Assembly (NCBI RefSeq): GCF_013167455.1
Contig: NZ_CP038328.1
Strand: one strand, 5' to 3'
Source: Escherichia coli O157:H7
Lineage (GTDB): Bacteria; Pseudomonadota; Gammaproteobacteria; Enterobacterales; Enterobacteriaceae
DNA length: 64,000 bases
Positions within the stretch are counted from its first letter, which is position 1. Each line of letters starts with the position of its first letter. This document shows, piece after piece, positions 18,001 through 24,000 of the stretch. Position numbers: made by a program.

Positions 18001-21000
18001 CTACTTTTGCTGTCGGGATATGCAGATAATTCACTCTGACGCTGCTTTACAACGGTTATTGACACGTTTCAACGATCCTGAGGGGTGGAGTAATCTGGCG
18101 AAAAATCAGTATCTGAGCACGTCGATGAAACAAAAAATTTGGCAACGTGCTTTATCGCATCGGAAAAATAATCCCAAAGCAGATTCAGATGCATATGAAA
18201 CCAGCGCTGATATGATTTTGTCTGAGCTTATCAGCTACGGTGAAGTTGATGACCAGATGCTATTAAATGCCACCTCTCTGATACGTTCGGACGACTGGGA
18301 CTTTTTAGAGAGTGCATTAATTAGTTGGGATAATTTACCCGCTGTTGTTCTCAAGGAATTACAGCAAAACACGCCACGCAATGATATTTGGGCGAAGTTT
18401 TTTCTGAGGCAGGAAAACAGTTCCCGTGCGCAGGTTAACGAAGCGTTACGTGTTTATTATGCACTAGACCCCGATGCGTTAGCACAACTGGATGTACTGG
18501 CAAAACAACCGGATCGTATATGGTGGAGTACACTGGCGAAAAGCAATCTCACATTTTTCAAGTTCGGCGCACTTAACAACCGCCACACACCGCCTGCAGT
18601 ACTGGCGGCAGAAATTGATCCCGAGTGGTGGATTGTGGCGATGAATAATCCCCGTTTTCCAGTTGATGTATTAAAGGCGAGGCTGAAACGTGATCCTTTG
18701 CTGGCGTTAAAGCTTGTTAACCCTGAACTGGATTTAGTTCGCCAGCTGGCGCTTAACGGTAAGACGCGCGCAATACGGGAACAAGCGATGAGAAAACTTG
18801 ATGAGTTGTATTGAATAACAGCGTAATAATTTTTAACCACTTGATTTATTGGGGATAATCATTCCTGACAGTGAGTCCCCAATACCTTGATATATTCTGA
18901 ATTTTTAATGAAGCGTCGTGTTGCGATATCTCCGTCAGGGGAATTGATGCACCATAGCGCAAACCGAATTATCAAGGATTGATAATGACGCTCTACCAGA
19001 TAAAACCGCTCTTTCAGTCGCTGTTAAGGCCGACGATGTTTTGGCTTTATAAGCACCATGTTACAGCGAATCACATCACTCTTGCTGCACTGGCGCTTTC
19101 TCTTATTACCGGATTGCTGTTGATGTTGGTCGCACAACCCATCCTCTTTTTGCTATTGCCCATCGTGCTTTTTATCCGTATGGCACTCAATGCGCTGGAT
19201 GGCATGTTGGCGCGTGAGTGCAATCAGCAAACACGTCTGGGGGCGATTTTAAATGAAACTGGCGATGTTATTTCCGATATTGCGCTCTATTTACCGTTTT
19301 TATTTTTACCGGAAAGTAACGCATCACTCGTAATACTCATGTTATTTTGCACCATATTGACTGAGTTTTGCGGTTTACTCGCGCAGACGATTAACGGTAT
19401 TCGTAGTTATGTCGGTCCTTTTGGCAAAAGCGATCGCGCGTTAATATTTGGGTTGTGGGGGCTGGCCGTTGCCATTTATCCACAGTGGATGCAATGGAAT
19501 AATCTTTTATGGAGCATTGCTTCAATTCTGCTTCTCTGGACTGCGATTAATCGTTGTCGGAGTGTGCTCCTGATGAGTGCTGAAAGATAATGCTGGAAAA
19601 ATCTCTGGCAACACTTTTCGCGTTGTTAATTTTAGCAACGCTGATAAACCGTTTTCGGGTATGGCGGTTACCGGAGAGAAAAGGGGATGAAGTTACACTA
19701 CGTATTCGTACCTGGTGGGGTATCGTCATTTGTTTTTCACTGGTGATTTCAGGTCCACGCTGGATGACGTTGACGTTTTTTGCGCTGATAAGTTTTCTGG
19801 CATTGAAAGAATATTGTACGCTTATATCCGTACATTTTCCGCGTTGGTTATATTGGGTTATTCCTCTTAACTATTTGCTTATCGGTTTTAGTTGCTTTGA
19901 GCTGTTTCTGTTATTTATACCTTTGGCTGGGTTTCTGATATTAACCACCTGGCGAGTTTTAGTAGGTGATACCTCCGGTTTTCTGCATACCGTGAGCGCC
20001 ATTTTTTGGGGCTGGATAATGACCGTTTTCGCCTTGAGTCATGCCGCCTGGTTATTAATGTTGACAACCACAAATACCCAGGGCGGGGCGTTACTGGTGT
20101 TATTTCTTTTGGCGTTAACAGAGTCAAACGATATTGCACAGTATTTATGGGGGAAATCCTGCGGCAGAAGAAAAGTGGTCCCCAAAGTCAGCCCGGGAAA
20201 AACGCTGGAAGGTCTGGTGGGGGGCGTAATCACCACCATGATTGCGTCACTGATTATTGGACCGTTGCTGACACCGCTAAATACATTACAGGCATTATTA
20301 GCGGGTTTGTTAATTGGTATTAGTGGTTTTTGCGGCGATGTAGTGATGTCAGCCGTCAAACGAGATGTGGGTGTTAAAGATAGCGGAAAACTATTACCAG
20401 GACATGGCGGACTCCTTGACAGGATTGACTCATTAATTTTCACCGCTCCGGTATTTTTTTATTTTATTCGCTACTGCTGTTACTGAAGGAAAATAGAGAA
20501 AATGGAAAATTCACGCATCCCTGGGGAACATTTTTTTACCACCAGTGATAATACAGCGTTGTTTTATCGGCACTGGCCCGCTTTACAGCCAGGGGCGAAA
20601 AAGGTCATCGTCTTATTTCATCGCGGTCATGAACATTCTGGTCGTCTACAACATATCGTTGATGAACTGGCGATGCCAGATACTGCTTTTTATGCATGGG
20701 ATGCCCGAGGGCATGGACAAACTTCGGGGCCCCGTGGTTATAGCCCATCTCTTGCGCGTTCAGTGCGGGATGTCGATGAGTTTGTCCGTTTTGCTGCCAG
20801 CGACAGCCAGGTCGGGCTGGAAGAGGTGGTAGTGATCGCGCAGAGCGTTGGCGCAGTGCTGGTTGCCACATGGGTTCATGATTATGCGCCTGCAATTCGC
20901 GGGCTGGTGCTGGCTTCTCCGGCCTTTAAGGTTAAATTGTATGTGCCGCTGGCACGTCCTGCGCTGGCGTTATGGCATCGTCTGCGTGGTCTGTTTTTTA

Positions 21001-24000
21001 TTAATTCCTATGTGAAAGGACGCTATTTGACCCACGATCGGCAACGGGTGGCGAGTTTCAATAATGATCCGCTGATCACACGGGCGATTGCCGTTAATAT
21101 CTTGCTCGATCTTTATAAAACGTCTGAACGTATTGTTAGCGATGCGGCGGCGATTACGCTCCCCACGCAACTTCTGATATCAGGCGATGACTATGTGGTG
21201 CATCGCCAACCGCAGATTGATTTTTATCATAGATTACGTAGCCCTCTGAAAGAGCTGCATCTGCTGCCAGGCTTTTATCACGACACGTTGGGTGAAGAGA
21301 ACAGGGCGCAGGCATTTGAAAAAATGCAAAGCTTTATTAGTCGTTTATATGCTAACAAGTCACAAAAATTTGATTATCAGCATGAAGACCGCACTGGACC
21401 ATCAGCGGATCGCTGGCGGCTCCTTTCAGGTGGACCCGTGCCATTATCGCCGGTTGATTTGGCGTATCGCTTTATGCGTAAAGCGATGAAATTGTTCGGG
21501 ACGCACTCTGCGGGCCTGCATCTCGGAATGAGCACCGGCTTTGATTCAGGCAGTTCGCTGGATTATGTCTATCAAAATCAACCGCAAGGTAGTAACGCAT
21601 TCGGGCGCTTAATCGACAAAATCTACCTGAACAGTGTTGGCTGGCGCGGTATTCGCCAGCGCAAAACCCATTTACAAATACTGATTAAACAAGCCGTTGC
21701 CGATCTCCACGCCAAAGGTTTAGCCGTCCGCGTGGTTGACATTGCCGCAGGGCATGGGCGCTATGTACTGGATGCGCTGGCAAACGAGCCTGCCGTAAGC
21801 GATATTTTGTTACGTGATTACAGCGAGTTAAATGTTGCACAGGGGCAAGAGATGATTGCTCAACGGGGAATGTCTGGGCGGGTGCGTTTTGAACAGGGCG
21901 ATGCGTTTAACCCGGAGGAACTCAGCGCGTTAACTCCGCGGCCTACGCTGGCGATTGTCTCTGGACTGTATGAGCTTTTTCCCGGAAATGAGCAGGTAAA
22001 AAACTCACTCGCAGGTCTTGCCAATGCCATCGAACCGGGCGGCATTCTCCTCTACACCGGGCAGCCGTGGCACCCACAACTGGAGCTGATTGCCGGGGTG
22101 TTAACCAGTCATAAAGATGGTAAACCGTGGGTAATGCGCGTGCGTTCGCAAGGGGAGATGGATTCACTCGTGCGTGATGCCGGATTTGATAAATGCACAC
22201 AACGGATTGATGAGTGGGGCATTTTTACGGTTTCGATGGCGGTGCGTCGTGATAACTGAACGCCGGAACGTATTGCTACAAGGCGCTGGCTGGTTATTGT
22301 TGCTGGCCCCGTTTTTCTTCTTCACCTATGGATCTCTAAATCAGTTCACCGCGGTTCAGGACTTTAACAGCCATGATATCCCCAGTCAGGTATTCGGCTG
22401 GGAAACGGCGATCCCTTTTCTTCCCTGGACTATTGTCCCTTACTGGAGTCTGGATCTTTTATATGGATTTTCGCTGTTCGTTTGTAGCTCGACATTCGAA
22501 CAGCGCCGACTTGTCCACCGGCTTATTCTGGCAACGGTAATGGCCTGCTGCGGTTTTTTTCTCTACCCGCTGAAGTTTAGTTTTATCCGTCCTGAAGTGA
22601 GTGGGGTGACAGGATGGCTATTTTCGCAACTTGAACTGTTTGATCTGCCTTATAACCAGTCTCCTTCGCTGCATATTGTTCTCTGCTGGCTACTTTGGCG
22701 TCACTTTCGTCAGCATCTGGCTGTGAGGTGGCGTAAAGTCTGCGGCGGATGGTTTTTACTCATCGCCATTTCGATGCTGACAACCTGGCAGCATCATTTT
22801 ATTGATGTCATCACAGGGCTGGCGGTAGGTATGTTGATTGACTGGATGATACCCGTCGACCGTCGTTGGAATTATCAGAAACCTGATCAACGTCGAATCA
22901 AAATAGCACTGCCATATGTCGTAGGCGCGTGCGCGTGCATTGTGTTGATGGAGCTAATGATGATGGTTCAGTTATGGTGGTCAGTCTGGTTATGTTGGCC
23001 AGTATTATCGCTACTCATTATTGGCCGTGGGTACGGTGGGCTTGGCGCGATAACAACAGGGAAAGATAGTCAGGGGAAACTCCCGCCCGCCGTTTACTGG
23101 CTGACATTGCCCTGGCGCATCGGGATGTGGCTATCTATGCGTTGGTTTTGTCGTCGCCTGGAGCCGGTGAGCAAAATGACTGCTGGTGTTTATTTAGGGG
23201 CGTTTCCACGACATATTCCGGCACAGAATGCGGTTCTGGATGTCACCTTTGAATTCCCTCGCGGACGAGCGACAAAAGATCGACTCTATTTCTGTGTACC
23301 GATGCTGGATCTGGTGGTTCCGGAAGAGGGGGAGCTCCGACAGGCCGTGGCGATGCTGGAAACATTACGCGAAGAGCAAGGCAGCGTTCTGGTCCATTGC
23401 GCATTGGGATTATCGCGCAGTGCGCTGGTAGTGGCGGCATGGCTGTTATGTTACGGACACTGTAAAACAGTTGATGAAGCGATTAGCTTTATTCGAGCCA
23501 GACGCTCGCATATTGTGCTTAAGGAAGAGCACAAAGCGATGTTGAAATTATGGGAAAACAGGTAAGTGGATTGAGATGTGGACTGAACTACAGTCCACAT
23601 CAAGATCGTGTCCGGTTATGCAGCAACAATACTGTCGATGGCTGCTTTCGCGTCAGACTGCGCTTTCGCTGCCATTTCCGGACCGTATGCGATCCCTTCG
23701 GCGAAGACAAATTTCACATCGGTAATGCCGATAAAGCCCAGGAACGTGGACAGATACGGCGTCACCAGGTCCGTTGGTCCATCTTTGTGGATCCCACCGC
23801 GGCTGGTAATAACGATGGCTTTTTTACCCGTTACCAGACCTTCCGGACCATTCTCGGTATAGCGGAAAGTAACGCCTGCACGTGCAACCAGGTCAAAATA
23901 GTTTTTCAGCTGAGTCGAGATGTTGAAGTTATACATCGGTGCCGCAATAACGATAACGTCATGGGCTTTCAGCTCGGCAATCAGCTCATCGGAAAGTGCC

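Follow-up and report, generated by a model that had tools for sequence, protein, structure and literature searches.

The ynbABCD operon studied here lies in a 64,000-nucleotide stretch of Escherichia coli O157:H7 DNA (contig NZ_CP038328.1 of assembly GCF_013167455.1), referred to in the following as the window. The interval 18985–23565, in which a first-pass annotation made from the sequence alone had placed the operon, coincides exactly with the ynbA-ynbB-ynbC-ynbD block of RefSeq and matches, by megablast, E. coli O157:H7 chromosomes annotated with these four genes at 100% identity across 4581 bases. All four genes are on the plus strand. ynbA (18985–19590) starts with the ATG at 18985, just before which AAGGA can be read directly in the sequence, and encodes a 201-residue CDP-alcohol phosphotransferase-like membrane protein. 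Its end forms a shared TAATG, a 1-nt overlap at 19590, with ynbB (19590–20486), which codes for a 298-residue paralogue of CDP-diacylglycerol synthase (CDS). After a spacing of 15 nt follows ynbC (20502–22259), whose product is a 585-residue soluble fusion of a hydrolase and a methyltransferase. The reading frame of ynbD is open back into ynbC, and the gene extends to 23565 from one of two in-frame candidate start codons, GTG 22249 (438 residues) or TTG 22273 (430 residues, the RefSeq start for this strain). The shared TAATG, the overlap of the ynbC and ynbD frames and the ambiguous ynbD start had all been described in the first-pass annotation, and its view of the genes as a tightly linked operon of lipid metabolism is borne out by the junctions and by the four domain assignments given below. 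Judged by the common strand, the minimal or overlapping junctions and a gene order kept in 80 loci of other species, which lies far beyond chance, ynbABCD is a real operon, with presumed co-transcription. ynbC has also been treated as an upstream gene of an operon in the literature (PMC2435150).

YnbA had been called a CDP-alcohol phosphatidyltransferase, which holds at the level of the family (PF01066, E 3e-9, residues 27–175), but the protein breaks the signature motif of that family. This signature canonically reads D1xxD2GxxAR...GxxxD3xxxD4. The YnbA clade has N69-x2-D72-G-x2-A-R-E-x7-G-x3-N90-E-x2-D94-x3-D98, invariant in 78 of 78 sequences, in which D2 (D72) and D4 (D94) are retained and D1 and D3 are replaced by asparagine (N69 and N90). 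All four aspartates are present in the phosphatidylinositol-phosphate synthase (PIPS) structure 6h53 and in CPT1 (9uet). In PgsA1 of Mycobacterium tuberculosis, D1 and D3 (D68 and D89) ligate Mg-1, with D89 bridging to Mg-2, and D4 (D93) serves as the catalytic base (PMC6506517). Since the two asparagines do not vary and ynbA is strongly constrained by purifying selection, we regard them as fixed in the clade and not as a sign of decay.

The best NCBIfam models for YnbA are those of archaetidylinositol-phosphate synthase (NF040950, 76 bits, cutoff 180) and phosphatidylinositol-phosphate (PIP) synthase (NF045883, 48 bits, cutoff 170), whose equivalog cutoffs it fails in both cases. Its PDB matches are to PIPS, CPT1, PSS and AF2299, the best being the PIPS PgsA1 of M. 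tuberculosis (6h53, E 1e-7). The closest families take phosphorylated inositol as acceptor, and an invariant K148-S-D-R151 of YnbA aligns with the PgsA1 loop R152-P-E-R155 that binds the phosphate of the acceptor. Loop and family matches together suggest that the acceptor of YnbA is anionic. A role as cholinephosphotransferase in a route to phosphatidylcholine was considered and rejected; the old EcoCyc annotation to this effect was withdrawn by the curators (PMC3781023) and the family scores do not support it.

YnbB matches PF01148 (CTP_transf_1) with an E value of 4e-70, and its CDS signature S254-A-x-K-R-D..K-D..G-H-G-G-x-L-D-R-x-D-S is invariant in 67 sequences. It shares this signature and the catalytic C-terminal half with CdsA and, like CdsA, makes CDP-diacylglycerol (CDP-DAG) in vitro; unlike in CdsA, the N-terminal half is unrelated, the score against the CdsA equivalog (111 bits) lies below the cutoff of 385, and the protein does not replace CdsA for growth. 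At seven positions that hardly vary among 66 orthologues (at least 97% invariant), the YnbB of E. coli has other residues (35, 102–104, 112, 119 and 143); all of them lie in the N-terminal half, where for example WYG of the family is changed to CFE. This agrees with published work in which the N-terminal half was found to limit the CDP-DAG output of YnbB. Upregulated YnbB and CdsA are reportedly needed for growth in the cold, going by the title of a 2023 paper of Kamemoto. Published work describes YnbB as a dispensable CdsA paralogue and slow synthase that is cold-induced, as is cdsA; its overproduction raises the level of the glycolipid MPIase, and in CdsA-depleted cells it restores MPIase and not phospholipids; it cannot take over bulk phospholipid synthesis from CdsA and does not complement a cdsA deletion (PMC6362211, PMC7018664, PMC11413397).

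YnbC consists of an alpha/beta hydrolase domain resembling monoacylglycerol lipases (residues 32–266, 20595–21299; PF12146, E 1e-67) and a class I S-adenosylmethionine (SAM) methyltransferase domain (residues 275–582, 21324–22247; PF12147, E 1e-151). The hydrolase domain has the fold with a cap and a Ser-Asp-His triad, S115, D230 and H260, which is invariant, as are the SAM motifs D413-x-A-A-G-x-G, D439 and A468-F469 of the methyltransferase. The predicted model holds both domains in a fixed orientation (pTM 0.94). Compared to human MGLL, M. tuberculosis Rv0183 and yeast Yju3, the lipase-like domain differs in its nucleophile elbow, which reads A-Q-S-V-G and not G-x-S-x-G, and in being fused to a PF12147 domain. 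Ralstonia PhcB is possibly a further member of PF12147. Transposon insertion into ynbC had an indirect effect on polyphosphate, which was confined to a single strain background (PMC2435150).

For ynbD, the GTG at 22249 gives an 11-nt overlap with ynbC, and the TTG at 22273 lies 13 nt past the ynbC stop codon. PGAP chose the TTG in this strain and in ETEC1738, and the equivalent of the GTG in Ec-U10 and an O39:H21 strain. Orthologues begin with an ATG 7–18 codons upstream of the position matching the E. coli TTG and carry a basic T-x-R-R tail ahead of the first helix; in Hafnia and Citrobacter sp. R56 the ynbC stop and the ynbD start overlap as ATGA. We favour the GTG, because in E. coli only this start retains such a tail (V-I-T-E-R-R-N-V).

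In TTG numbering, YnbD comprises a membrane part of eight transmembrane helices with a PAP2_3/sphingomyelin-synthase-like site (residues 1–262, 22273–23058) and a predicted cytoplasmic dual-specificity-phosphatase (DSP) domain (residues 299–430, 23167–23562). In the AlphaFold2 model (pLDDT 93.7, pTM 0.90) eight long helices precede the DSP domain. The DSP domain is recognised with an E value of 1e-26 (DSPc) and has the DSP fold, the general-acid aspartate and a CX5R P-loop in the motif HCALGLSRS; PTPMT1, a lipid-phosphate phosphatase, is among its top matches. The membrane part matches PAP2_3 (E 1e-3) and Pfam PAP2 (E 0.033) weakly and departs from the three PAP2 motifs (C1 KX6RP, C2 PSGH, C3 SRX5HX3D). 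In C1 the lysine varies among the sequences, the E. coli version being K-X4-RP; C2 is an invariant P-S-L-H; and C3 reads S-x6-H-H-x2-D, devoid of the arginine. The invariant residues of this part are PSLH134, H174-H175 and D178, and its fold is of the sphingomyelin synthase (SMS)/Aur1 type, with a His-His-Asp triad on the predicted non-cytoplasmic side. It matches SMSr and Aur1 better than hydrolytic PAP2 enzymes, although the identity of YnbD to SMS1/2, SMSr and fungal Aur1 is only 11–14%, and two extra transmembrane helices and the fused cytoplasmic phosphatase set it apart from them. Clusters of lysine and arginine are found at 76–79, 143–155, 196–210 and 263–298; the motif loops are free of these residues except for K101 and R106 of the C1-like motif, and the DSP domain follows a segment rich in them. 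From this distribution the PAP2_3 site is predicted to be periplasmic and the DSP domain cytoplasmic. The first-pass description of YnbD as a membrane-anchored CX5R phosphatase is thus correct for the phosphatase, but the supposed anchor appears to be a second catalytic domain. Previous work identified YnbD as a fourth PAP2 protein in E. coli, found that it does not complement mutants in undecaprenyl pyrophosphate or phosphatidylglycerophosphate (PGP) phosphatase and showed that a strain devoid of all four PAP2 genes, ynbD included, is viable (PMC7413402).

To place the operon in a wider context we used YnbC, whose fusion family counts 409 representatives at 50% clustering (E ≤ 1e-30). A genome scan with an alignment of 10 sequences, chosen since one of 39 was too diverse, returned at least 453 loci. 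The best 80 were examined, which are a sample and not a census, and which do not include Escherichia's own close relatives; they come from Enterobacterales, Neisseriaceae, Pseudomonas, Variovorax, Cupriavidus, Accumulibacter and Zoogloea, with one Bradyrhizobium and one Acetobacteraceae. In nearly all of these gamma-, beta- and alphaproteobacterial loci ynbC is directly preceded by ynbA and directly followed by ynbD. This core is usually joined by ynbB and by two genes that the E. coli operon does not have. One encodes a PlsC-type acyltransferase of about 210 residues with an AGPAT domain match and invariant HX4D and FPEGxR motifs, which almost always adjoins ynbB. The other, located just behind ynbD or overlapping its end, encodes a small protein of about 130–150 residues with three hydrophobic segments. 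Catalytic residues are invariant across the proteins of the cluster. Counted over 81 loci, the E. coli reference locus included, 51 show the order ynbA-ynbC-ynbD-(small protein)-acyltransferase-ynbB and 11 the order ynbA-ynbB-acyltransferase-ynbC-ynbD(-small protein), and ten have ynbA-ynbC-ynbD only (Proteus, Providencia, Morganella and some cut contigs); the order ynbA-ynbB-ynbC-ynbD occurs once, in E. coli itself. Hence, the E. coli operon is a reduced version of the cluster. The most dispensable member is ynbB; in Proteus, Providencia, Morganella and Xenorhabdus it is absent up to a distance of 8 kb from the core. Clustering of the open reading frames (ORFs) flanking the 80 loci yielded no other family that extends beyond one lineage (maximum 14 of 80).

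YnbA and YnbC are fused in two independent natural proteins, P0123 (807 residues, the N-terminus 45% identical to YnbA) and P0151 (927 residues). The latter belongs to a variant of the cluster found on one Moraxella plasmid (M. osloensis pNP7-2, 4480–12330) and one metagenomic contig (L085, 6970–14629), which contains ynbA and ynbC (fused in P0151, at L085), a patatin-like phospholipase, a short-chain dehydrogenase/reductase, a ynbB-like CDS gene in opposite orientation and a PAP2_3 protein similar to YnbD. In a further case, a more distantly related PF12147 protein adjoins a membrane protein of the LPG-synthase type. What recurs is a PF12147 methyltransferase in the company of a lipid acyl-hydrolase, of one fold or the other, together with a CDS, a CDP-alcohol transferase and a PAP2_3 protein; this recurrence and the fusions are evidence of joint action.

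Separately, a second, Citrobacter-type ynb cluster is present on a conjugative IncF plasmid of E. coli (NZ_CP045714.1, 4020–8148). It is a decayed copy, with ynbA split over two frames and ynbD reduced to its first 69 residues, next to intact ynbB, acyltransferase and ynbC genes; similar copies on plasmids of Citrobacter and Enterobacter indicate that the cluster moves horizontally. In Citrobacter sp. FP75, ORFs of 879 residues and of 114 residues, the latter for a secreted protein, lie directly upstream of ynbA (2597–5755). We take these two to resemble ydbH, which encodes an AsmA-like lipid transport protein, and ydbL. Their adjacency is not widely conserved, and in E. coli an autotransporter gene, pdxI and ydbD are found upstream of ynbA instead.

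Among 5426 complete E. coli genomes, the operon is at least 80% present in 4283 (79%), partial in 485 (9%) and missing from 658 (12%). Pairwise comparison of the O157 allele with four other alleles gave dN/dS values of 0.06–0.16 for ynbA, 0.11–0.18 for ynbC, 0.15–0.22 for ynbD and 0.28–0.50 for ynbB, and the reading frames are intact in four of the five alleles. By this measure, ynbA, ynbC and ynbD are under purifying selection in E. coli and selection on ynbB is relaxed; overall, the genes are kept by selection yet dispensable. At the level of single strains, ynbD of E. coli XJ6.1 is frameshifted by a 7-bp deletion and single-base indels, and in ETEC1738 a stop lies within the first codons of ynbC, for which a downstream start is annotated instead.

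Taken together, we read ynbABCD, with a probability of roughly one half, as a functional, non-essential accessory operon that is the E. coli remnant, four genes out of six, of a proteobacterial cluster for a minor lipid derived from CDP-DAG. In such a pathway the PlsC-type acyltransferase, where present, and YnbB would feed a private pool of phosphatidate and CDP-DAG, a task left to YnbB alone in E. coli. On the cytoplasmic face YnbA would then use CDP-DAG as the donor of a phosphatidyl group for an acceptor that is anionic and probably phosphorylated. Directly before or after this step YnbC may remove an acyl chain and methylate the lipid or the acceptor, and such proximity of the two reactions would explain the natural YnbA-YnbC fusions. 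The cytoplasmic cysteine phosphatase of YnbD could strip the head-group phosphate, in the manner of PTPMT1, PgpA or PIP phosphatases, and its periplasmic SMS/Aur1-like site might finally transfer or cleave the phospho-head group and release diacylglycerol. Experimentally shown, in the literature, is the CDS activity of YnbB only; the private pool and all other steps we infer from the domains and their arrangement.

The nearest worked-out analogue of this route is found in Bacteroides, where the PIP synthase BT_1523, the PIP phosphatase BT_1525 and the Aur1-like inositol-phosphoceramide synthase BT_1522 act in sequence (PMC9246714), together with PgsA1 as the counterpart for the first of these enzymes. 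The likeness has limits. No inositol-phosphate synthase is linked to the ynb cluster; YnbA, unlike a PIP synthase, falls below both equivalog cutoffs, has asparagine at D1 and D3 and possesses no equivalent of R94; the phosphatase is a cysteine-based DSP fused to a transferase domain and not a member of the PgpA family; and the lipase-methyltransferase YnbC has no counterpart in Bacteroides. We further know of no sphingolipid acceptor in bacteria that host the cluster. The synthesis of phosphatidylglycerol (PG) by PgsA with PgpA, PgpB and PgpC, or by PGS1 with PTPMT1, is likewise only partly comparable, as YnbA reaches 30 bits against the PgsA model (cutoff 109), YnbD does not complement a pgpA pgpB pgpC mutant and its P-loop is devoid of the basic residues of PTPMT1.

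Several observations weigh against our reading of a functional lipid pathway. No product of the operon has ever been detected, and the analysis did not identify the head group; no gene for a head-group precursor, such as the inositol-phosphate synthase MIPS, is linked to the cluster in any lineage sampled. Asparagine at two Mg-1-binding aspartate sites means that ordinary transferase chemistry cannot be assumed for YnbA, and the position of PgsA1 R94, which is conserved in users of inositol phosphate, is occupied in YnbA by V, I or L and is not conserved. The top matches of the YnbD phosphatase are protein phosphatases, and its P-loop CaLGxSRS does not have the basic residues of PTEN and PTPMT1. 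For the methyltransferase domain of YnbC no characterised close relative was found. The PAP2_3 partner in the Moraxella-type variant has no DSP match, so that the phosphatase step is not universal. In E. coli the pathway may be incomplete, given that the acyltransferase and the small membrane protein are missing, and about 21% of the complete genomes do not carry an intact operon.

The first-pass proposal of a pathway for an unusual phospholipid or head group stands as regards a linked lipid operon and its domains, but not as regards a four-gene unit or a self-contained one, since no head-group precursor gene is linked and two genes of the cluster are missing from E. coli. Its statement that no product had been assigned agrees with the literature searched, which assigns no product to the operon and no function to ynbA, ynbC or ynbD. 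"Under-characterised" is accordingly apt for the product of the operon, but not for YnbB, a published CDP-DAG synthase, or for YnbD, whose complementation has been tested.

The alternative with the best prospects, though in our judgement an unlikely one, is that in E. coli the operon serves as an auxiliary route to MPIase, a pyrophosphate-linked glycolipid. Here, YnbB would make CDP-DAG, which YnbA and not the CDS itself would condense with N-acetylglucosamine (GlcNAc)-1-phosphate to GlcNAc-PP-diacylglycerol (GlcNAc-PP-DAG), and the PAP2-type site of YnbD would recycle the diacylglycerol pyrophosphate anchor. The idea draws on the effect of YnbB overproduction on the MPIase level, on the selective restoration of MPIase upon CdsA depletion and on the cold induction that cdsA and ynbB have in common; moreover, the later enzymes of MPIase synthesis are unknown in the literature, dephosphorylation of lipid pyrophosphates is the task of the PAP2 class, and the exchange of two acidic residues for asparagine in YnbA would lessen repulsion of a phosphate nucleophile. 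The MPIase literature searched does not mention ynbA, ynbC or ynbD. However, deletion of ynbB leaves the MPIase level unchanged, and according to the same work CdsA suffices by itself. MPIase is also reported to be essential, yet ynb DNA is wholly missing from 12% of the complete E. coli genomes and a further 9% have only part of the operon, and ynbB is both the most dispensable member of the cluster and under relaxed selection in E. coli. Neither the lipase-methyltransferase nor the cysteine phosphatase would have a role, and the membrane domain of YnbD is closer to transferases than to pyrophosphatases.

Less plausible still, YnbC could be the centre of the system, cleaving an acyl chain from a special lipid and methylating a product, such that the output is no membrane lipid but a small released compound, for example the methyl ester of a fatty acid or a head-group fragment bearing a methyl group, for which the rest of the cluster builds the precursor. 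The fusion of an esterase with a methyltransferase in a fixed orientation, with invariant catalytic residues, speaks for this, as does the recurrence of the PF12147 methyltransferase beside a patatin lipase of a different fold, which suggests that deacylation and methylation are required together. Against it stand the lack of evidence for carboxyl-methyltransferase chemistry in a domain for which no characterised relative was found, and the fact that YnbD and the altered site of YnbA are left unexplained.

A bolder variant of the lipid pathway, which we put forward as speculation with poor odds, takes the altered site of YnbA as its starting point. The Asn/Asn enzyme would use a phosphate oxygen as nucleophile and form a lipid of the type X-PP-DAG, for example GlcNAc-PP-DAG, and after flipping of this lipid the periplasmic SMS/Aur1-like site of YnbD would pass the phospho-head group to an acceptor in the envelope. 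If true, this would constitute a new class of bacterial glycerolipids, made by a chemistry not seen in other CDP-alcohol phosphotransferases; diacylglycerol pyrophosphate would serve as a lipid carrier in the way undecaprenyl pyrophosphate does, and MPIase-type glycolipids would gain the first dedicated enzyme that their synthesis has been missing.

Least credible of all is a silent remnant, that is, a poorly expressed and decaying operon of no current role in E. coli with the effects of YnbB as side activities of a redundant CDS: it can call upon the loss of two genes present in most other loci, the seven deviating positions and dN/dS of 0.28–0.50 of YnbB, the 485 genomes with partial deletions, the 658 devoid of the operon and the strain with a frameshifted ynbD, the lack of a growth or MPIase phenotype upon ynbB deletion, the viability of the quadruple PAP2 deletion and a promoter that depends on BglJ, whose own operon (yjjQ-bglJ) is repressed by H-NS, but it is countered by dN/dS values of 0.06–0.22 for ynbA, ynbC and ynbD, intact frames in four of five alleles, the retention of all catalytic residues, a whole operon in 79% of the genomes and the reported requirement for YnbB and CdsA upregulation in the cold.

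As to the flanks of the operon, RefSeq places ydbD upstream of ynbA and azoR, in convergent orientation, downstream of ynbD. The ynbA promoter, which is activated by BglJ-RcsB according to the literature, is contained in the 170 bp between the ydbD stop and the ynbA ATG (18815–18984, plus strand), in which a consensus sigma-70 scan found no match; promoter and terminator consensus scans gave matches that were fewer than, or no more than, those in shuffled sequence. Silencing of ynbA by H-NS was considered and not adopted, as the literature consulted describes activation by BglJ-RcsB only and contains no H-NS test at ynbA; the low G+C content of ynbA and ynbB (0.42–0.45) is at most compatible with it. 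A stem-loop between the convergent ynbD and azoR genes (23562–23619, no strand assigned, with a perfect 11-bp core at 23575–23601) spans the stop codons of both. Folded as RNA it reaches −26.9 kcal/mol (z = −5.5), and none of 200 shuffled sequences was as stable. It is probably a shared transcript-end structure, and is absent from the list of the terminator scan because it has no T-run. An unannotated ORF of 219 residues (23550–24209, plus strand) begins inside the end of ynbD and covers azoR in full on the antisense strand; in all likelihood this is a shadow ORF. In the interval 16400–19400 of the window, ydbD, annotated in RefSeq as a DUF2773 bactofilin, and ynbA/ynbB are AT-rich (G+C 0.39–0.45) compared to ynbC/ynbD and hrpA (0.50–0.56). 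Just after hrpA, at 28400–29000, the G+C content falls to 0.35 over a run of RefSeq hypothetical proteins, which may mark the edge of a strain-specific island.

The phospholipid metabolism of E. coli is usually seen as essentially complete, with phosphatidylethanolamine, PG, cardiolipin and a few minor species. Yet the ynb operon codes for a CDP-DAG synthase and a type of CDP-alcohol phosphotransferase that are each the second in this organism, for a PAP2-type protein that is the fourth, and for a lipase-methyltransferase; none of them has an assigned product. The genes were already annotated and YnbB had been studied; new are the ancestral six-gene cluster, the fixed Asn/Asn site of YnbA, the two-sided YnbD, the YnbA-YnbC fusions, the second cluster variant and the pattern of selection in E. 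coli. By this comparison the real unit is a six-gene cluster that is widespread in Pseudomonas, Burkholderiales and Enterobacterales, and the analysis makes a question of MPIase biosynthesis directly testable, namely which enzyme forms GlcNAc-PP-DAG.

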